Shown here one piece after another: positions 1,750-10,338 of a stretch of 64,000 nt of DNA. The DNA lies in contig CAZIEY010000002.1 in assembly GCA_964538855.1 (NCBI GenBank), forward strand, positions 1,709-65,708, written 5' to 3'. This stretch comes from an uncultured Candidatus Saccharibacteria bacterium (GTDB taxonomy: Bacteria > Patescibacteriota > Minisyncoccia > Phycocordibacterales > JAACPR01). Position 1 is the stretch's first letter, and each line of letters starts with the position of its first letter. The translations under genes and the position numbers were made by a program. A model generated the notes under the pieces. That model saw only the letters and a list, made by a program, of their open reading frames with translations, searched no databases and was not told the origin of the DNA.

Positions 1750-1953
1750 ATGAACCATACTATTAGATGCAAAAATCCAAAATGCGGTAAGATTCTAAAA
1801 AAGATCGGACCTTTTGCTACCGTTAAACCAGAAGGCCAACCAGCTCAGAAATATGACGGTACAGTAACTCTTATTTGCCCAGATCCCGATTGCTCTGAAT
1901 TTAACGTTACAATTAAAGTGCCTGAGAGCGAATATCTCAATATTTTACAATAA
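1750..1953 (+). CDS. Small zinc-ribbon protein resembling phage Mu Com (C-x2-C ... C-x4-C), directly upstream of hsdM
   Basis: IRCKNPKCGKILKK...LICPDPDC resembles Mu Com IRCxxCnKLL. An extended -10 tggtataat lies 9 nt upstream of the ATG. Confidence 0.5.
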   Translation: MNHTIRCKNPKCGKILKKIGPFATVKPEGQPAQKYDGTVTLICPDPDCSEFNVTIKVPESEYLNILQ

Positions 1954-2002: not shown

Positions 2003-3805
2003 GTGGGTATGTCTATCGATAAAACAAAATTTATTACTCCAACTCAACTAGCCAAGATGTTGGGTATTACTCGTGTTGCTGTTCATCAGAAAATTAAAAA
2101 AGGGGACATCAAAGCTGAGAATGTCGGCGATTCATCAAAACCAACTTTCCTAATTCCTAAAGACTCATTACCTGCTGAAATACGCGAACGTATTGAGAAT
2201 GAAAAAAAGAAAATAACTGAAAGTGTGATTGGAAAAAATATTCAACATCACGATCTCAATTTTGAAAAAGAACTATGGGCAGCTGCAGATAAGCTTCGTG
2301 GAAATATCGATGTTTCCGAATATAAAAATATCGTCCTCGGATTACTTTTCTTGAAATATATATCCGACGCTTTCTATAAACGTCGCGAAGAACTTGATGC
2401 GCTAACCCGCGATCAAAAGAACGAAGATTTTTATGTTAAAGATGACAAAGCTCGGGCGCAAATTCTGGAAACAAAAGATTTCTATAAAAGTGCCGGTGTG
2501 TTTTATGTCCCCGAAAAGTCACGATGGGAATATTTGCAAACAAAAACAATGCAATCTGATATTGGCCAGGTGCTTGATAAAGCCATGGATTATATCGAAG
2601 AAGATAACCGAGCTGAACTTGAAGGTGTACTTCCAAAGATTTATACACGAACAACGCTTGATCATTCTGTTATTGGTGAGCTCGTAAATATATTCTCTCG
2701 TATTTCATTCGATCACAACTTTGATCGAGAAAAAGATATTCTCGGACGCATCTACGAATACTTCCTTGGTCAGTTTGCTTCATCTGAAGGAAAACGAGGA
2801 GGCGAATTTTTTACACCTAGATCAATCGTCAAATTACTCGTTGAAATTCTTCAGCCTTACGAAAATGCACGCGTATTAGATCCTGCTTGTGGTAGTGGTG
2901 GGATGTTTGTCGCTATGGGTGAATATCTACGCAATCACAGACAGGATGCATCAAAGCTTGCGATCAATGGGCAAGAAAGTAATCAAACAACACTTCGTCT
3001 TGCAAAGATGAATCTTGCAATTCGAGGACTCTCTGGAAAGATTGAACTCGGAAATACTTATTATCAAGACAAGTTTCCTCACCTGCAGGCAGATTTCGTG
3101 ATTGCAAACCCTCCCTTTAACGGAGAGTGGGAACCATCAAAGCTTTCTGATAATGATCCACGTATCACTCTCGGCACACCACCAAGTGGAAACGCAAACT
3201 TTATGTGGGTGCAACATTTTGCACACCACCTTGCACCAAATGGTTTAGCCGGGTTTGTTATGCCAAACGGAGCACTTGCCGTATCTGGTAAAGAAGGAGA
3301 GCTTCGCAAAAAGCTCATCGAAGAAGATCTTGTTGAGGTAATTATTTCTTGTCCATCAAAGCTTTTCTATAACGTATCTCTTCCCGTATCTTTATGGTTC
3401 TTGGCAAAGAATAAGAGTGGTGACCGTTTCCGAAAACGATCCGGTGAAACATTGTTTATTGATGCTCGAGATACATTCGAACAGATTTCACGTAAGCAGG
3501 TTGTGTTTAATCCAGAACATATAGAGAAAATCTCTAACACCGTGCGTGCGTGGCGTGGAGAAAAGGATGCGGGAAAATACGAAGATGTATCTGGATTCTG
3601 TAAGTCGGCATCTCTAGAGGAGATAAAAAAGAATGGATATGTTCTTACCCCTGGTCGTTATGTTGGACTTGCAGATGTAGAAGACGATGGAATTTCATTT
3701 GAAGAGAAGATGAAAAAACTTTCATCTGAACTTCGGAATGCTTTTGTGAAAGGTCGTGATCTGGAAAAGGAGATTGAGAAGAATTTAAAAGAATTAGGAT
3801 TCTAA
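2003..3805 (+). CDS. hsdM: Type I restriction-modification N6-adenine DNA methyltransferase subunit M with an extra N-terminal HTH (excisionase/AlpA-like) domain of about 85 aa
   Basis: LWAAADKLRG (HsdM_N), the NPPFNG catalytic motif and the FxGxG AdoMet region. N-terminal ITPTQLAKMLGITRVAVHQKIKKGDIKAENVG is HTH-like. Confidence 0.9.
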   Translation: MGMSIDKTKFITPTQLAKMLGITRVAVHQKIKKGDIKAENVGDSSKPTFLIPKDSLPAEIRERIENEKKKITESVIGKNIQHHDLNFEKELWAAADKLRGNIDVSEYKNIVLGLLFLKYISDAFYKRREELDALTRDQKNEDFYVKDDKARAQILETKDFYKSAGVFYVPEKSRWEYLQTKTMQSDIGQVLDKAMDYIEEDNRAELEGVLPKIYTRTTLDHSVIGELVNIFSRISFDHNFDREKDILGRIYEYFLGQFASSEGKRGGEFFTPRSIVKLLVEILQPYENARVLDPACGSGGMFVAMGEYLRNHRQDASKLAINGQESNQTTLRLAKMNLAIRGLSGKIELGNTYYQDKFPHLQADFVIANPPFNGEWEPSKLSDNDPRITLGTPPSGNANFMWVQHFAHHLAPNGLAGFVMPNGALAVSGKEGELRKKLIEEDLVEVIISCPSKLFYNVSLPVSLWFLAKNKSGDRFRKRSGETLFIDARDTFEQISRKQVVFNPEHIEKISNTVRAWRGEKDAGKYEDVSGFCKSASLEEIKKNGYVLTPGRYVGLADVEDDGISFEEKMKKLSSELRNAFVKGRDLEKEIEKNLKELGF

Positions 3806-3812
3806 AAATATT

Positions 3813-4622
3813 ATGAAAGAAAATACATTTGAAACAATTAAAAGGGTGGATGATAACGGTAAAGAATACTGGGCATCTAGGGATCTTGCTAAAGTTTTAG
3901 AATATAGTGATTACCGTAATTTTTTAGGCGTTATTGACAAGGCGAAAATTGCTTGTGAAAACAGTGGCGTGGTTATCCACAAGCATTTCGTCGAAGCCAA
4001 CGAAATGGTTCCTATTGGATCTGGTGCGGAAAGGATGACAGATACTGTGCATCTCTCTCGCTATGCATGCTATCTTATTGTACAAAATTCTGACCCTACA
4101 AAAGTTGTCGTTGCAAAGGGTCAGACTTATTTTGCAATTCAAACTCATCGGCAAGAAAAGACAGATAGTTTAGCTGAGGATAATAATCGAGTCTTCTTGC
4201 GCGAAGAAATGAAGAAACATAATACTGGTTTAATGCAAACTGCATCACTGGCAGGGGTTGAAAGCTTCGCCATCTTTCAGAATGCTGGTTATAAAGGTTT
4301 GTACGGTGGACGTACTATGCAAGATATCCATACTGAAAAGAAATTGACTAAATCACAAAAGATTCTTGATCATATGAATAGTGAGGAACTAGCTGCAAAT
4401 CTATTTCGTGCCACGCAAACAGATGCAAAAATAAAACGTGAAAATATAAAAGGACAAGGAAATGCAAATCTTGCGCACTATGAAGTTGGACAGAAGGTTC
4501 GTAACACTATCGCTAACCTTGGTGGAACCATGCCAGAAGATCTTCCTACTCCTGATGCTATTGGAAAAGCTCAAACGAGGATAAAGAAGTCAAAAAACAA
4601 GAAACTTACTGATGGGAAATAG
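3813..4622 (+). CDS. DinD-like (DNA-damage-inducible protein D, Bro-N domain) protein, embedded between hsdM and hsdS
   Basis: FETIKRVDDNGKEYWASRDLAKVLEYSDYRNFLGVIDKAKIACENSG...VHLSRYACYLIVQNSDPTKVVVAKGQTYFAIQTHRQE aligns closely with E. coli DinD. Confidence 0.7.
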   Translation: MKENTFETIKRVDDNGKEYWASRDLAKVLEYSDYRNFLGVIDKAKIACENSGVVIHKHFVEANEMVPIGSGAERMTDTVHLSRYACYLIVQNSDPTKVVVAKGQTYFAIQTHRQEKTDSLAEDNNRVFLREEMKKHNTGLMQTASLAGVESFAIFQNAGYKGLYGGRTMQDIHTEKKLTKSQKILDHMNSEELAANLFRATQTDAKIKRENIKGQGNANLAHYEVGQKVRNTIANLGGTMPEDLPTPDAIGKAQTRIKKSKNKKLTDGK

Positions 4623-4631
4623 AAAGCCAAT

Positions 4632-5732
4632 ATGAGTAAATTAATAGAACAAATAAATAAAGAAAAAAGAGAAATGACTCTAGGCGATGTTGTTACTTTT
4701 CATCGAGGTTATGACTTACCTTTAAATGAAATAAAACCAGGTTCATATCCTGTTGTTTTTTCTAATGGACGAAGAGAAAACCATGCTGAGTTTAAAGTTA
4801 CGGGCCCGGGAGTATTTACTGGGCGTAGTGGATCTTTGGGTGGTATTTTTTATGTTGAAGAAAATTATTGGCCCCACAACACAACTCTCTATGTAAGTAA
4901 TTTTCACGGTAATGATCCAAAGTATTGCTACTATTTTTTGTCGTCATTTGATTTCGCAAAATTTAATGCAGGTACTGGTGTTCCTACTTTAAATAGAAAT
5001 CACATTCACGGAATACCTGTAAAAATACCAGATCTTCCAACTCAAAAGAAAATTGCTGAAATCTTGAGTGCGTACGATGCAAAGATTGAGAATAATAATC
5101 TTATCATTAAGAAACTTGAAGCGACCGCTCAAACGTTATTCGACGAATGGTTCATAAACTTTCGATTCCCTGGATACGAGAAGGTGAAATTTGTTGATAG
5201 TGAAATGGGAGAAATCCCCGAGGGATGGGAAGTTTTAAAACTTGGCGATATTTTTGATATTAAATATGGCAAGAATTTGCCGACCTCAAAAATAAGTAAA
5301 GAAGGTAATTTTCCAGTTTACGGCGCTGGCGGAGTTATAGGTTTTTATGAAAAGAAAAATGTTGATGAAAAAGTGATTTTGATTACATGTAGAGGTAATG
5401 GTAGTGGAACTATATGGAGAACAAATGGAGAAGGTTTTGTTACAAATAATTCATTTATGATCCTGCCTAAGAAGAATTTTAATTACTTTAATTTCATATC
5501 TATATATTTTTTATTTAAGAACAGTAATGTTTCTGCGGCGTTGTCTGGGTCAGCACAGCCACAAATAACGATAGATGGATTAAGTCCTATTCAAACTATA
5601 TTTCCTGATAGAAATTTATTAGAGTCTTTTCAAAAATTGACAACAGTTATGTTTGATTTAACGGATGAGTTACTTGAAGAAAACATTTCTTTAAGGTTGC
5701 AGAGAGATCAATTATTAGCAAAATTAATTTAA
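4632..5732 (+). CDS. hsdS: Type I restriction-modification specificity subunit S (two target-recognition domains)
   Basis: Two TRD-like halves separated by the conserved coiled region (KIAEILSAYDAKIENNNLIIKKLEATAQTLFDEWF). Operon context. Confidence 0.85.
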   Translation: MSKLIEQINKEKREMTLGDVVTFHRGYDLPLNEIKPGSYPVVFSNGRRENHAEFKVTGPGVFTGRSGSLGGIFYVEENYWPHNTTLYVSNFHGNDPKYCYYFLSSFDFAKFNAGTGVPTLNRNHIHGIPVKIPDLPTQKKIAEILSAYDAKIENNNLIIKKLEATAQTLFDEWFINFRFPGYEKVKFVDSEMGEIPEGWEVLKLGDIFDIKYGKNLPTSKISKEGNFPVYGAGGVIGFYEKKNVDEKVILITCRGNGSGTIWRTNGEGFVTNNSFMILPKKNFNYFNFISIYFLFKNSNVSAALSGSAQPQITIDGLSPIQTIFPDRNLLESFQKLTTVMFDLTDELLEENISLRLQRDQLLAKLI

Positions 5733-5736
5733 ATAT

Positions 5737-6348
5737 ATGACGAATATTGAAATAATATTAAAATTCACAGAATTATTACTTGCATGGCCAGTAACCGCTT
5801 TAGTTTTAGGTATTGTATTTATACTATATTTTAAAAATGAAATTAAAACTTTATTAAAATCTAAAAAAGTGAAAGTCGGGAATGTTGAATTTGATCAAAC
5901 CCTACAATCAGAAGAAGTTGAAGATAAAACTTCTAAAGATATAGAGCAGCCAGTAAATGGGCAGTATTTTTCTGATGAGCAAATTTCTCAACTAGGCCAA
6001 ACTATAAATAATCTTGAAAATGATTCAACACAAAAAAACCAAAAAATAAATGAACTTACAGCACTAGCTGTTCAATTAAATGAAAGAGCAGAAACATTTG
6101 AATTTTTGTATCTGAATACTTTTTTAGTCATGAATTCAAAAATTGCACTCAAACACTGGTTTAAAGATGGTTCAACCAAAGATTATTTTATGAGTAGTTA
6201 CCCTTTACCGGAAGCAATTGTAGATAAAAACCAAGAATTAAGTGCAATATTTAACGTGCTACTTGTAAATAATCTAATTGAGCAAGTTGGAGAAATATTT
6301 AGAATAAATGAAAAAGGTAAAAAATTCTTAGAAAAGATCGGAATGTAA
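5737..6348 (+). CDS. Hypothetical protein with an N-terminal TM helix, embedded between hsdS and hsdR
   Basis: ORF with 4 nt spacing to both neighbours. N-terminal hydrophobic LLLAWPVTALVLGIVFILYF. No recognisable motif. Confidence 0.5.
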   Translation: MTNIEIILKFTELLLAWPVTALVLGIVFILYFKNEIKTLLKSKKVKVGNVEFDQTLQSEEVEDKTSKDIEQPVNGQYFSDEQISQLGQTINNLENDSTQKNQKINELTALAVQLNERAETFEFLYLNTFLVMNSKIALKHWFKDGSTKDYFMSSYPLPEAIVDKNQELSAIFNVLLVNNLIEQVGEIFRINEKGKKFLEKIGM

Positions 6349-6352
6349 ATTT

Positions 6353-9300
6353 ATGAACCCACTAAACGAAAACAATTTAACAGAGCAATCACTTATCGAA
6401 TGGCTACAAGGTCAGGGCTATGAGTATGTCTACGGTCCAACAATAGCACCAAATCAACCTAACGCGGAGCGCGAGGATTTTCGAGGTGTTGTACTCAAGA
6501 ATCGACTTCTTACTTCTGTACGCCGATTCAACCCACAACTTCCTGCGCTACAAGCAGAACAAGTTGTTGACGATATCGCGGGATATCACAATGCTGATGC
6601 AATGATCGGTAATAAGGAAATGTTCACTCTTATTACTGAAGGGATGAAAAAAACATGGCAAGAGGACGGTATAGAAAAAACAGAAGTTGTTAAGCTTATT
6701 GATTTTGAAAATGTTGAAGCAAACGATTTCTTAGTAACAAATCAGTTTACCGTTCAGGGTGTAGAGAATGTTTGCCGTCTTGATGGTGTTATTTTTGTGA
6801 ATGGTATTCCACTCTCAGTTTTGGAACTCAAAAGTCCCGTGCGTGAAGAAGCTTCAATTGGTCAGGCGTATCGAGATGTGGAGTACTACAAAAAAGAAAT
6901 TCCAAAGATGTTTTTGTATAACCAAGTGCTTTGTTTGTCTGATCTTACAGAAGCTCGACATGGAACAATTTCTTCTTCGTGGGAACGATACGGAACATGG
7001 AAAGGTATGAATTCGGAGATAGATGCTCCAAGCAGTGTTACGGAACTCGAGGTTCTTGCAAAAGGTCTTTTTGATAAAAAACGACTTCTCGACCTCGTTC
7101 AAAACTTCATAGTTTTTGAAGCAGATGGTGACGGTGATGCAGTGACTTACACAAAGAAGATGGCTTTATATCACCAGTACTACGGTGTAAACAAAACAAT
7201 CGATAGCACTGTGCGATCAGTTGGTGGAGAGCAAGATCGAAAGATTGGTGTCTTTTGGCACACACAAGGATCTGGAAAGTCACTCTCAATGGTTTTTTAT
7301 GTGAACAAGACAAAACGTATTCCAGAACTTAAAAGCCCTGCGTATGTTTTTCTCACTGACCGTGAAGATCTAGACGACCAACTCTTTAAGACATTTAGTC
7401 GTACAGGATATAGCACTCTTGCTAAACGAGCATCAAGTATTAAGGATTTGAAAGATAAGCTCACCCATCTTGGAAGTGAACTCATTTTTACCACTATTCA
7501 GAAATTCCAAGATGATCCTGATGCGAATAATGTTTTAAGTGAACGAGAAAATATTATCGTTCTTACTGATGAGGCACACCGAACGCAATACAGTATGCTC
7601 GCAGGTAATGTGAGACAGGCTTTGCCACAAGCAAGCTTTTTGGGTGTGACAGGAACTCCACTTTCAAACCATGATAAAAACACAATGCGTGTTTTCGGTG
7701 ATATTGTGAGTTCATACAAAATCGGACAAGCAGTAAAAGATAAAGCGACTGTGCCGATTTATTATGAAGGTCGCCTTGTTCCACTCCATTTGGCGGATAA
7801 ATTTGTAGACAGTAAGTTAGATGAAATTCTCGGAGAGATTGTGGTGGATGAAAAAGTAAAAGCTCGTAAAGAATGGGCGGTACTTGAAGAAGTTGTTGGT
7901 GCACCAAGTCGTATAAAAGAAATCGCAAGAGACGTTGTCGCTCACTTTAATAATCGCCCAATTAATGGTAAGGCGATGGTTGTTACTATGAGTCGTTCAA
8001 TTGCAGTCGCGATGTATAATGCCATAAAAGAAATTTCAGGAAGTCCGGAATGCGCGGTGATTATTTCTGGTATGGATGATTTTTCTAATCAAATTCAATC
8101 AGAGCATGATGTAAAGAAGCTCGAGAAGAGATTCAAGAAAATTAATGATCCGTTACGTTTGGTGATTGTATGTGATATGTGGCTAACAGGTTTTGATGTG
8201 CCAAATTTACACACGATGTATCTTGATAAGCCTCTTAAAAATCATGGATTAATGCAAGCAATTGCACGTGTAAATAGAGTATATAAAGATAAACCAGGTG
8301 GATTGATTGTGGATTATATTGGTATTGCCGAAAATTTAAAAAAGGCACTTGCTGTGTACGACAGTGATGTACAAAAAGAGGCAATGATTCCATTGGATGA
8401 AGTTATATTTGAAATGAAACAACTTCATGGAGAAGTTGCGTTATATTTTTCAGCAGTCGATTTTATTGGCTGGCGAGCAAAGAAGGGGGTAGAGTTGGTT
8501 GAATTTTTTCAGCACGCACTTAACGAAGTTATTTCCGAGAATGGTCGTTTATCAGATGAACGAAAAATGAGATTCATTGGTTTGGTTTCAAAATTATCTC
8601 GATTGCATGCACTTGTAATGCCTGCCGAACCAGCAATGAGTATTACGGGTGATGTGCGATTCTTCCAATCAATTAGCGAGTCTGTCAGCAAACAGACTTT
8701 TATACCTGGAATTATTTTTCCAGAAGCAACCGAGAGTGCTATCCGTAGTTTGGTGCATGATTCTGTACAAGCTGAAGGTGTGATTGATTTATTTACGAAA
8801 GCAGGAGAAGAGAGAAAAAAAATTTCAATTTTCGATGCGCGTTTTGCTGATGAAATCAATAAGACAAAATATAAAAACTTGGCAATTGACACGATTCGAA
8901 GAATGCTCGATGAGGAGATAAAAGTTCGTTCTCGTGTTAACAAGGCGCGCTATGAGTCTATGCTTACATTACTGACAGAACTTATCGCAAAATACGAAAA
9001 TAATGTGATTAGTTCTGCGGAAATTATTAAACACTTATTACAAGTTGCTGCAGAAATTAAAGAACTCGATAAGGAGAGCGAGGAGTTGGGCTTATCTTCT
9101 GATGAAGTTGTATTTTATGATACTCTTACTAGCGATCCAGAATTAAAAAAAGCAGGAATTGATATTAAAGAGTTCGTGAAAGATCTAACGAAGCGGGTTC
9201 GAAGAGATTTAACTATTGATTGGACTAATAATGAAACGATTAAAGCACGTATTCGTCAAAATGTTCGCCTGCTGATTATTCAAAAAGGTGTATCTGATAT

Positions 9301-9376
9301 GGTCCACACAGAACGTTTAATCGAATCGATTTATCAGGAAACTGTCAGGGTGTATAGGGAATATGTTCCGGCATAA
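6353..9376 (+). CDS. hsdR: Type I restriction enzyme endonuclease subunit R
   Basis: DEAH-box helicase motifs (TGSGKS-like FWHTQGSGKS, VLTDEAHRTQ), 1007 aa, operon context. Confidence 0.9.
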   Translation: MNPLNENNLTEQSLIEWLQGQGYEYVYGPTIAPNQPNAEREDFRGVVLKNRLLTSVRRFNPQLPALQAEQVVDDIAGYHNADAMIGNKEMFTLITEGMKKTWQEDGIEKTEVVKLIDFENVEANDFLVTNQFTVQGVENVCRLDGVIFVNGIPLSVLELKSPVREEASIGQAYRDVEYYKKEIPKMFLYNQVLCLSDLTEARHGTISSSWERYGTWKGMNSEIDAPSSVTELEVLAKGLFDKKRLLDLVQNFIVFEADGDGDAVTYTKKMALYHQYYGVNKTIDSTVRSVGGEQDRKIGVFWHTQGSGKSLSMVFYVNKTKRIPELKSPAYVFLTDREDLDDQLFKTFSRTGYSTLAKRASSIKDLKDKLTHLGSELIFTTIQKFQDDPDANNVLSERENIIVLTDEAHRTQYSMLAGNVRQALPQASFLGVTGTPLSNHDKNTMRVFGDIVSSYKIGQAVKDKATVPIYYEGRLVPLHLADKFVDSKLDEILGEIVVDEKVKARKEWAVLEEVVGAPSRIKEIARDVVAHFNNRPINGKAMVVTMSRSIAVAMYNAIKEISGSPECAVIISGMDDFSNQIQSEHDVKKLEKRFKKINDPLRLVIVCDMWLTGFDVPNLHTMYLDKPLKNHGLMQAIARVNRVYKDKPGGLIVDYIGIAENLKKALAVYDSDVQKEAMIPLDEVIFEMKQLHGEVALYFSAVDFIGWRAKKGVELVEFFQHALNEVISENGRLSDERKMRFIGLVSKLSRLHALVMPAEPAMSITGDVRFFQSISESVSKQTFIPGIIFPEATESAIRSLVHDSVQAEGVIDLFTKAGEERKKISIFDARFADEINKTKYKNLAIDTIRRMLDEEIKVRSRVNKARYESMLTLLTELIAKYENNVISSAEIIKHLLQVAAEIKELDKESEELGLSSDEVVFYDTLTSDPELKKAGIDIKEFVKDLTKRVRRDLTIDWTNNETIKARIRQNVRLLIIQKGVSDMVHTERLIESIYQETVRVYREYVPA

Positions 9377-9384
9377 AGTTTTTA

Positions 9385-9825
9385 ATGACATTCGAACACT
9401 CACAAGATAAAATTTTCTTCGCACAACTGCTCGCCGGCGGTTCTGTTAATGTGCTCGAACAAAAATATAGCGAACTATTCGATTTTCGAAATCCGCTTAT
9501 AAAACGAAAAGAGTTCAACGCTATTCGACCAAATCTTCTAAAAAGTTTAGTCGAAAAATACGGTCATACATGTCAGCTGCATATTCACCCGGAATGTAAT
9601 TCTGACGGTGCATTGGAAGTCGATCATATTATCCCTTTATCAACCAATGTCCTGAATAAAGAAATTCGACATATGCAACGTATTCCACCTGCAAAAGTTC
9701 CAGCGCAAAGCTTTGGTTCTAACAACATAAAAAATATGGCGTTAGCTTGTCCTAGATGCAATTCTCGAAAAAAACATAGAATTCTCGCCGAACTTACAGT
9801 GAAACTTTTGCAATTGCGGTTTTAA
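9385..9825 (+). CDS. HNH endonuclease
   Basis: HIHPECNSDGALEVDHIIPLS...N...LACPRCNSRKKHR (HNH motif with zinc-binding Cys pairs). Confidence 0.7.
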   Translation: MTFEHSQDKIFFAQLLAGGSVNVLEQKYSELFDFRNPLIKRKEFNAIRPNLLKSLVEKYGHTCQLHIHPECNSDGALEVDHIIPLSTNVLNKEIRHMQRIPPAKVPAQSFGSNNIKNMALACPRCNSRKKHRILAELTVKLLQLRF

Positions 9826-9846: not shown

Positions 9847-10338
9847 ATGATCCTCTTCCTCTCCGGCTCTATCAACTCTGGCAAATCGACGGTGGCGCGA
9901 TTGTTGGTGGAACGTGTGCCTCGAACGGCGCTTGTCGAGATTGATGTGGTGCGAGACATGGTGCCGTGGATGCCGCTTGAGGACTCGATTCCTCTCAATT
10001 GGACGAATGCAATGTCGCTCATTCGCAATTTTGTCAAAGCCGACTGCAACGTCGTTGTGCCGTATCCGCTGTCGCTCGCAAATTACGAACGGGTCATGCG
10101 CGAGCTTGCCGACATCGCTGTGCAAATGCATGTGGTGACGCTTGCTCCTCGCAAAGACATTGCTCTCACAAATCGTGGCACCCGCGAGCTGGACGATTGG
10201 GAACGCGGACGCATCGAATATCACTACAACATCGGCATCAATGCGCCTGCGTTTGGTCACATCATCGACAACTCGGCTCAGACGGTGGAGGAGACGGTGG
10301 GGGAAATATTACAATTACTGCGGCTTGTAAATATATAA
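9847..10338 (+). CDS. Small P-loop NTPase (kinase/zeta-toxin-like AAA_33 fold), GC-rich
   Basis: Walker A GSINSGKST near the N-terminus. The segment is markedly GC-rich relative to its neighbours. Confidence 0.5.
   Translation: MILFLSGSINSGKSTVARLLVERVPRTALVEIDVVRDMVPWMPLEDSIPLNWTNAMSLIRNFVKADCNVVVPYPLSLANYERVMRELADIAVQMHVVTLAPRKDIALTNRGTRELDDWERGRIEYHYNIGINAPAFGHIIDNSAQTVEETVGEILQLLRLVNI

Follow-up and report, generated by a model that had tools for sequence, protein, structure and literature searches.

A predicted membrane-anchored winged-helix protein of an unnamed family occupies a variable slot in a Saccharibacteria type I restriction operon and has relatives beside type II and III systems

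What are a dinD-like gene and a gene for an unfamiliar membrane protein doing between the subunit genes of a type I restriction-modification (RM) operon? The operon in question lies near the start of the window, a stretch of 64,000 nucleotides (nt) from an uncultured Candidatus Saccharibacteria bacterium (assembly GCA_964538855.1, contig CAZIEY010000002.1, positions 1,709 to 65,708), and reads hsdM - dinD - hsdS - gene of a protein of 203 amino acids (aa) - hsdR. This order had been proposed in an earlier sequence-only reading, and calling of open reading frames (ORFs) reproduces the same genes, while profile searches confirm their assignments. The five genes of that list hold, but a sixth, co-oriented gene coding for an HNH endonuclease had been missed. 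In the list below, M-S, S-R and post-R designate the positions between hsdM and hsdS, between hsdS and hsdR, and after hsdR, respectively.

2003-3805, plus strand: hsdM, type I methyltransferase subunit, with a GTG start as called (N6_Mtase, HsdM_N, MTase_I)
3813-4622, plus strand: dinD, DinD family with N-terminal Bro-N domain, in the M-S slot (NF008573, PDC-S13)
4632-5732, plus strand: hsdS, specificity subunit with two target-recognition domains (Methylase_S, Specificity_I)
5737-6348, plus strand: gene of the 203-aa protein, predicted to be a membrane-anchored winged-helix protein, in the S-R slot (unnamed family)
6353-9376, plus strand: hsdR, restriction/translocase subunit with all domains present (TIGR00348, REase_I)
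9385-9825, plus strand: gene of a 146-aa HNH endonuclease, in the post-R slot (HNH, HNH_5, HNH PHROGs)

The answer that we favour, with moderate confidence, is that a widespread Hsd lineage of Patescibacteria, also referred to as the candidate phyla radiation (CPR), serves as a scaffold with three recombination-prone slots, and that the 203-aa protein is an autonomous accessory module that would bind DNA at the membrane side. The genes from hsdM to hsdR are separated by gaps of 7, 9, 4 and 4 nt, and 8 nt lie between hsdR and the HNH gene. Simple scans for promoters and terminators inside the gene string returned nothing convincing, and with this spacing a single transcript across the string is plausible. 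By profile, the type I core is complete and its activity is predicted: HsdM matches N6_Mtase (4.7e-103) and HsdM_N (1.8e-25) among Pfam-type profiles and MTase_I of PADLOC (3.3e-154), HsdS matches Methylase_S in two stretches (7.1e-36) and Specificity_I (2.1e-87), and HsdR, comprising HSDR_N, SWI2_SNF2, T1R_D3-like and T1RH-like_C domains, matches TIGR00348 (5.3e-177, 590 bits vs. a cutoff of 285) and REase_I (3.9e-246). The product of the post-R gene matches HNH (1.1e-7), HNH_5 (1.1e-6) and HNH PHROGs.

Comparison with related operons (loci designated by L numbers) reveals that the three slots, all of which are filled in the window, are empty or hold other defence cassettes elsewhere. The HsdR lineage is large, with more than 100 clusters at 69% identity or above, mostly labelled Patescibacteria. 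Loci L038 and L039 (HsdM 92%, HsdR 87% identical; 22 further similar places) have the order M - S - 605-aa ATPase - R and carry neither dinD nor the 203-aa gene. The ATPase in their S-R slot, which is also present in L037 (HsdR 89%), comprises 560-605 aa and overlaps hsdR by 4 nt (L038 5187-7004, L037 865-2547, L039 5238-7004); judging from its PADLOC matches (Old, 2.3e-27; AriA, 7.6e-27, full-length), it is a PARIS/OLD-like module embedded in a type I system. In L040 and L041 (83% and 81%), M and S are fused and nothing precedes hsdR, while a gene for a KAP NTPase (PifA/QatA-like) follows it. The fused genes (L040 4501-6996, L041 912-3335) encode HTH_17, HsdM and HsdS as one protein of 807-831 aa, and there is no separate hsdS and no M-S slot. 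The M-S slot is empty in L038 and also in L001 (HsdM 82%), which lacks dinD but carries a member of the 203-aa family in its S-R slot. The same S-R occupant is found in L012 (HsdM 81%), where the M-S slot holds a gene for a 288-aa protein instead of DinD. This protein (5903-6769 of L012) possesses N-terminal membrane helices and an unassigned C-terminal domain. With one weak Pfam match below cutoff and no PADLOC match, its gene is a further embedded gene without a name. Further M-S occupants are RhuM-Fic (PDC-S23/S05) in L025 and NYN (HEC-09-like) plus an RVT_3 protein in L027. The position after hsdR is a third variable slot, filled by HNH in the window, by the KAP NTPase in L040 and L041 and by a 234-aa gene of no known kind in L037. 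Altogether, the alternative occupants of these slots match the PADLOC defence or candidate models Old/AriA, PDC-S23/S05, NYN/HEC-09, PifA/QatA and PDC-S01.

The 203-aa gene is compositionally foreign within its operon: its guanine-cytosine content (GC) is 27.6% and its GC at third codon positions (GC3) is 17%, vs. 38-39% and ~30% for hsdM, hsdR, dinD and the HNH gene. Moreover, the relationships within its family are incongruent with those of the Hsd genes. The member in L012 is only 41% identical to that of the window despite 81% identity of HsdM, while it shares 49-53% with members residing in operons whose HsdM is ~40% identical. Hence, the gene has been exchanged between operons. Slot variation in the sister operons, incongruence and foreign composition together show dinD and the 203-aa gene to be swappable cassettes rather than Hsd parts; the scaffold is conserved, and its slots are prone to recombination. 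An obligatory Hsd subunit was considered for the 203-aa protein and rejected, as the gene is absent from the closest sister operons. The sequence-only reading, which took both genes for passengers rather than subunits, is borne out by their absence from L038 and L039 and by the other fillings of the slots. It had also named absence from close relatives as a sign against the passengers, and such absence is indeed found (neither gene in L038 and L039, no dinD in L001, another gene in its place in L012). However, this does not make the passengers meaningless, because the same slots hold known or candidate defence genes.

What, then, is the 203-aa protein? The earlier description, an unknown protein with a transmembrane segment, is accurate: there is a hydrophobic segment at residues ~6-33, and no family in Pfam, NCBIfam, PADLOC or PHROGs matches the protein. 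No literature on the family was found, a PDB sequence-profile search with it gave nothing meaningful, and no relatives were found in viral contigs. A word-indexed search detected four close relatives. Exhaustive profile search with HMMER against 1.84 billion representatives yielded 235 clusters at E<=1e-3, 88 of them at E<=1e-10, nearly all of 190-270 aa and matched end to end. On this sequence evidence, the family is real, conserved over its full length and new, as well as unnamed in the four databases. The hosts of the named relatives are metagenome-assembled genomes of Saccharibacteria, Parcubacteria and Paceibacterota plus one of a gammaproteobacterium, and the family seems to be concentrated in Patescibacteria/CPR.

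An alignment of 64 family members (A2) served as basis for the counts of motifs, membrane segments and fold profiles. It shows, at the N-terminus, a hydrophobic segment that includes a W-P motif, then a Lys-rich stretch in which K46 and E51 are near-invariant, an acidic linker that varies between members and a C-terminal block of the form RAExxEFxYLNxxLVxNTKxALxWF ... EKEAIFNxLLxNxLI ... KGxxFL. The hydrophobic segment, followed by Lys-rich sequence, is present in 62 of the 64 members, and longer members have a second segment upstream. From the positive-inside distribution of charges, we infer that the C-terminal part is cytoplasmic in both forms. For the protein of the window, this gives a layout of a membrane helix (~6-33), a Lys-rich juxtamembrane stretch (33-46), a disordered acidic linker (~52-79), a long helix (80-129) and a winged helix (132-201).

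The model of the fold depended on the depth of the alignment. AlphaFold provided with the four close homologues reached a predicted local distance difference test score (pLDDT) of 38.6 and was unusable, whereas A2 gave a usable model with a pLDDT of 88.2 overall and above 93 over residues 80-203. It comprises helices at 3-41, disorder at ~52-79, a single 50-residue helix at 80-129 and then a succession of helix, strand, two helices, hairpin and helix, in which the winged-helix elements are H132-141, E146, H148-154, H164-177, E181-184 and E187-190. The Foldseek search against the PDB, which had been suggested as a check, delivered winged-helix proteins in all top nine matches. Sso10a came first (70 columns, root-mean-square deviation 2.5 A, 23% identity, probability 1.0, E 0.012), followed by MarR/TcaR, the DNA-binding domain of CggR and a PhiH1-repressor-like protein. 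Profile matches point the same way: Pfam HTH_45 is found in 24 of the 64 members (best 8.5e-5; the window protein scores 15 bits vs. a cutoff of 25.5) and NCBIfam Sso10a_fam in 15 of 64 (best 1.3e-4). According to the model, the C-terminal domain thus has an Sso10a/PadR-like winged-helix fold, while its sequence scores below the cutoffs of HTH_45 and Sso10a_fam and places it outside those families. The C-terminal 70-75 residues superpose on Sso10a; the recognition helix, the wing and the 'KG' motif are shared with winged-helix proteins of the Sso10a, HTH_45 and PadR-MarR types, and the long helix is suited to coiled-coil dimerisation. In contrast to Sso10a, the long helix is located before the winged helix and not after it, and the N-terminal membrane anchor and the acidic linker are without counterpart in these proteins. 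Lys/Arg residues are conserved at positions 135, 148, 168, 193 and 196 of the C-terminal domain. Judged by the model, the protein likely binds DNA and probably dimerises through the long helix.

Which genes accompany the family elsewhere? Twenty-nine non-redundant contexts were assembled from the window and from loci retrieved by exact look-ups and by scans of genomes and metagenomes. The search patterns were derived from the family itself and hence were blind to context; a subset of 12 sequences was used for locus finding. Neighbours were classified with probes and Pfam, which gave the following distribution.

10 of 29, inside a type I operon: window, L001, L012, L024, L025, L026, L027, L029, L032, L034
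4 of 29, directly after a type II pair: L009, L013, L014, L020
2 of 29, inside a type III operon (Mod - member - ... - Res): L017, L018
4 of 29, beside other defence-like genes: L011, L016, L022, L036
9 of 29, short contig or uninformative: L008, L010, L019, L021, L023, L028, L030, L031, L033

Sixteen of the 29 contexts are RM-adjacent and co-oriented, with the member directly 3' of a methylase or specificity gene, and many of the junctions measure -4 to +10 nt. This proportion clearly exceeds any plausible background (binomial P <1e-6 even if a rate of 15% is assumed). Among the type I cases, where junctions fall in the same range, the member almost always follows hsdS directly and/or directly precedes hsdR. 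The type II pairs consist of an N6_N4 methyltransferase with Bpu10I, Tsp45I or DUF6996/6997, and the defence-like neighbours are an SLFN-type helicase, an AAA_15/21 ATPase, an HATPase_c_3 protein and DUF4145/DUF2971. In both type III operons (L017, 450-8303, and L018), the order is Mod - family member - AAA_14/DUF4143 ATPase (PADLOC PDC-S01) - Res; from this gene order, type III systems show embedding of several guests as the type I operon does.

These contexts bear on the idea that the passengers are unrelated hitch-hikers or selfish genes that settled at the junctions of a mobile RM island, which are prone to recombination, and have no role in defence. The slots are clearly recombination hotspots and the 203-aa gene is foreign in composition. 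At ~6150-6390 of L001, the RM island (T5orf172 - hsdM - hsdS - 202 aa - hsdR) begins right after a tRNA gene, whose 3' end aaatcccggtagggtcaca is repeated ~155 nt downstream; this att-like duplication suggests an integrated mobile island. Nevertheless, we regard pure hitch-hiking as highly improbable: the ORFs are intact, the full-length architecture is kept across the 235 clusters, placement in the same orientation recurs in three RM types, and the other occupants of the slots are known or candidate defence genes.

The contexts likewise bear on a role of the 203-aa protein as localisation factor, whose anchor and stalk would tether Hsd or other RM enzymes at the inner face of the membrane. 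The membrane anchor is conserved, the stalk is long, and in at least nine type I operons the gene sits between hsdS and hsdR with junctions that are 4 nt wide or overlap. EcoKI has been reported to be associated with the cytoplasmic membrane. However, the closest sister operons lack the gene or have an unrelated ATPase in its slot, the family tree is incongruent with HsdM and HsdR, indicating exchange, and members also occur alone or beside systems of types II and III, whose enzymes have no subunit in common with Hsd. Tethering is therefore an unlikely explanation. Partners of three unrelated architectures, standalone occurrence and exchange between operons argue instead for an autonomous module without specific contact to Hsd.

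Alternatively, the protein could be a membrane-tethered regulator similar to the controller (C) proteins of RM systems, which would time or limit expression of the downstream restriction gene. Its winged helix is typical of repressors (MarR/TcaR, CggR, PhiH1 repressor-like, PadR-type motif), and the gene is always located 3' of a methylase or specificity gene; in operons of types I and III, it also lies 5' of the restriction gene. In these respects, i.e. as a small protein of DNA-binding type encoded in an RM operon in front of the restriction gene, it does resemble C proteins. The latter are, however, small and soluble, belong to the Xre type of helix-turn-helix (HTH) proteins and act with an intergenic C-box, whereas the 203-aa protein is predicted to be a membrane-anchored winged-helix protein and has no intergenic region at its disposal: the junctions are 4 nt or 4-nt overlaps. 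A classic C protein was rejected on these grounds, namely the wrong fold and the lack of operator space in the 4-nt gap to hsdS. Two features lie upstream of hsdM.

1641-1692, no strand assigned: three copies of ATAGTTAAAGTT (direct, inverted, direct; 3 found vs. 0.47 expected)
1750-1953, plus strand: gene of a 67-aa Cys-rich (CxxC...CxxC) small protein, just 5' of hsdM

The ATAGTTAAAGTT copies are followed by a promoter-like site (1714-1743) and then by the Cys-rich gene, and a hairpin with a T-run (1956-1977) lies 3' of the latter. The repeats resemble an operator, and it is uncertain whether this possible operator is part of the system. A conserved operator was rejected, as the repeats are absent upstream of the related operons L001 and L012; among the compared loci, the Cys-rich gene itself was found in the identical contig L007 only. 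With the upstream cluster not conserved, the gene dispensable in the closest relatives and many members standing alone, regulation of the restriction gene by the 203-aa protein appears quite unlikely.

Is the second passenger, DinD, equally new? Its assignment survives profile search: NCBIfam NF008573 is matched at 2.1e-110 (368.6 bits vs. a cutoff of 242; residues 3-265 on positions 10-280 of the 288-position profile), and Bro-N (PF02498) at 1.1e-12, above cutoff. The gene also matches the PADLOC candidate PDC-S13 (9.7e-110) and the first 270 positions of the 717-position PADLOC 'Specificity_I' model PDLC03083 (7.2e-94). Since this model carries a DinD-like N-terminal part, fusions of DinD and HsdS must be common enough to be modelled. 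In base composition, dinD is like hsdM and hsdR (GC3 29-30%). The arrangement M-DinD-S, which had been considered unusual, is recurrent and already catalogued. Apart from the two PADLOC models, there is a type I locus in a published table that has a dinD/RhuM-domain coding sequence between core genes (PMC9881135), and Neisseria gonorrhoeae has the order hsdM - dinD - (S) - hsdR with an HsdM that is 26% identical to that of the window. We did not adopt NgoAV as name for the Neisseria system; the paper on NgoAV makes no mention of dinD. DinD inside an hsd operon is hence known, and the locus adds another instance of PDC-S13. Of note, PDC systems are defence candidates by embedding alone (Payne 2024, bioRxiv 10.1101/2024.01.29.577857).

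The DinD of the window and that of E. coli are alike in the full-length profile match, in Bro-N and in ~55% sequence identity (tblastn). They differ in setting: E. coli dinD is under SOS (LexA) control, whereas the gene in the window follows hsdM after 7 nt in a CPR-type host. SOS control appears unlikely here, because the gap leaves no room for a promoter of its own. That the function of DinD is unclear, as the sequence-only reading put it, is partly right; E. coli DinD is an inhibitor of post-synaptic RecA filaments in vitro (Uranga 2011, cited in PMC10602874). One or both passengers might accordingly manage the cost of restriction rather than act against phage, e.g. DinD could damp RecA after self-restriction, in the sense of alleviation or anti-restriction control. 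Apart from the RecA activity, the frequent placement of DinD beside hsdS that is reflected in the 'Specificity_I' model speaks for this idea, as does the same gene order in Neisseria with an unrelated Hsd lineage. On the other hand, DinD homologues on plasmids and mobile elements are mostly lone genes beside toxin-antitoxin, integrase or partition genes, the closest sister operons have no dinD, and nothing ties the 203-aa family to RecA or to proteolysis of Hsd. We judge cost management quite improbable. Correspondingly, among the roles that had been proposed for the passengers, that of a defence or abortive-infection partner is favoured by the occupants of the slots, whereas no evidence was found for anti-restriction control or restriction alleviation.

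How does the locus compare with known cases of embedding? Type I, BREX and DISARM loci provide many defence candidates in the form of embedded genes (Payne 2024, bioRxiv 10.1101/2024.01.29.577857). DarTG2 resides between hsdS and hsdR in enteropathogenic E. coli, a site that has been proposed as a hotspot (PMC12255303), and PrrC is embedded in EcoprrI (PMC12707154). The passengers of the window are like PrrC, DarTG2 and the embedded genes of PADLOC in site (with preference for the S-R slot), variable content, co-orientation and tight spacing. The 203-aa protein contains neither the domains of PrrC (ABC-ATPase and anticodon nuclease) nor those of DarTG and has no PADLOC match. A PrrC analogue, for which the location between hsdS and hsdR would be fitting, was rejected, as the protein has no ATPase or nuclease domain and does not match the PrrC model. 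Unlike known embedded guests, those of the window fill three slots together, and the 203-aa family also occurs in type II and type III operons. With regard to PARIS (AriA/AriB) and OLD, the identical S-R slot is filled by the AriA/OLD-like ATPase in the closest sister operon, suggesting that modules which support restriction as a backup are accommodated at this site. The 203-aa protein itself has no similarity to these systems in sequence or fold, and neither an ATPase nor a nuclease domain.

Further observations concern HsdM and the flanks of the operon. The likelier start of hsdM is the ATG at 2009, which matches the gene call in the identical contig L007. At its N-terminus, HsdM is extended by ~85 aa that are HTH_17-like (HTH_17 1.2e-3, residues ~11-42; window 2003-2260). 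This extension is kept in the HsdM lineage and appears as a strong Pfam match in L040 and L041; it is real, because these relatives carry it as such. This excisionase/MerR-like element may be a built-in regulator of the operon. A free-standing HTH_17 protein of 85 aa, 36% identical to the extension, is encoded in L013 (3324-3581), where it precedes a Fic gene. Upstream of the operon in the window, a gene for a PemK/MazF-type toxin (600-1010) is present without obvious antitoxin partner. A PemK/MazF-type gene, split into two ORFs, is found at the equivalent place in the Saccharibacteria relative L012 (3311-3731). Directly after the HNH gene, a gene for a 163-aa P-loop kinase-like protein (9847-10338; GC 53%, GC3 63%) is a compositional outlier vs. 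its neighbours (~38% GC) and the window mean of 41.6%.

Returning to the autonomous module that we favour, the 203-aa protein would be held in the membrane by its N-terminal anchor, and its stalk and winged helix would reach into the cytoplasm. Pairing through the helical stalk of ~50 residues would produce a dimer, which could bind DNA on the inner side of the membrane, at the entry site of foreign DNA. In this way, the protein may provide a second layer beside restriction: it would either hold or flag the DNA on entry or, once triggered, employ its membrane segment as an effector. Several points weigh against this reading. The winged-helix domain is weakly basic, with a mean net charge of about +1 and a range of -6 to +8, and the MotA activation domain as well as dimerisation domains of O-methyltransferases, which are also Foldseek neighbours, use the fold for protein contacts; for both reasons, binding of DNA is not assured. 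The background of 15% against which RM adjacency was set is an assumed rate. Nine of the 29 contexts are uninformative and four are 'defence-like'. Finally, the case for a role of the family in defence is one of association, and PADLOC, where no model matches it, adds nothing to this predicted role.

A more far-reaching version can be offered as speculation that we consider doubtful: the family might be an envelope-linked part of CPR immunity, i.e. a membrane-tethered dimeric sensor that catches DNA at entry, by phage injection or pilus uptake, and then hands it to the type I, II or III RM enzyme or triggers a membrane-based abortive response. If true, the family would be a generic adaptor between cell envelope and restriction.

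Embedding of defence genes in restriction operons is a known phenomenon and a productive signature for new anti-phage genes; the new element here is the 203-aa family, which is unnamed in the databases and unusual for its occurrence beside RM systems of types I, II and III. Even if the protein turned out to have no phenotype, the locus would be a clean example of a three-slot RM scaffold. CPR bacteria are mostly without CRISPR and rely on the uptake of foreign DNA for nucleotides, and their immunity is barely characterised. In such cells, a membrane-anchored protein of DNA-binding type, if produced together with restriction enzymes, would be relevant to the question of where in the cell restriction takes place.

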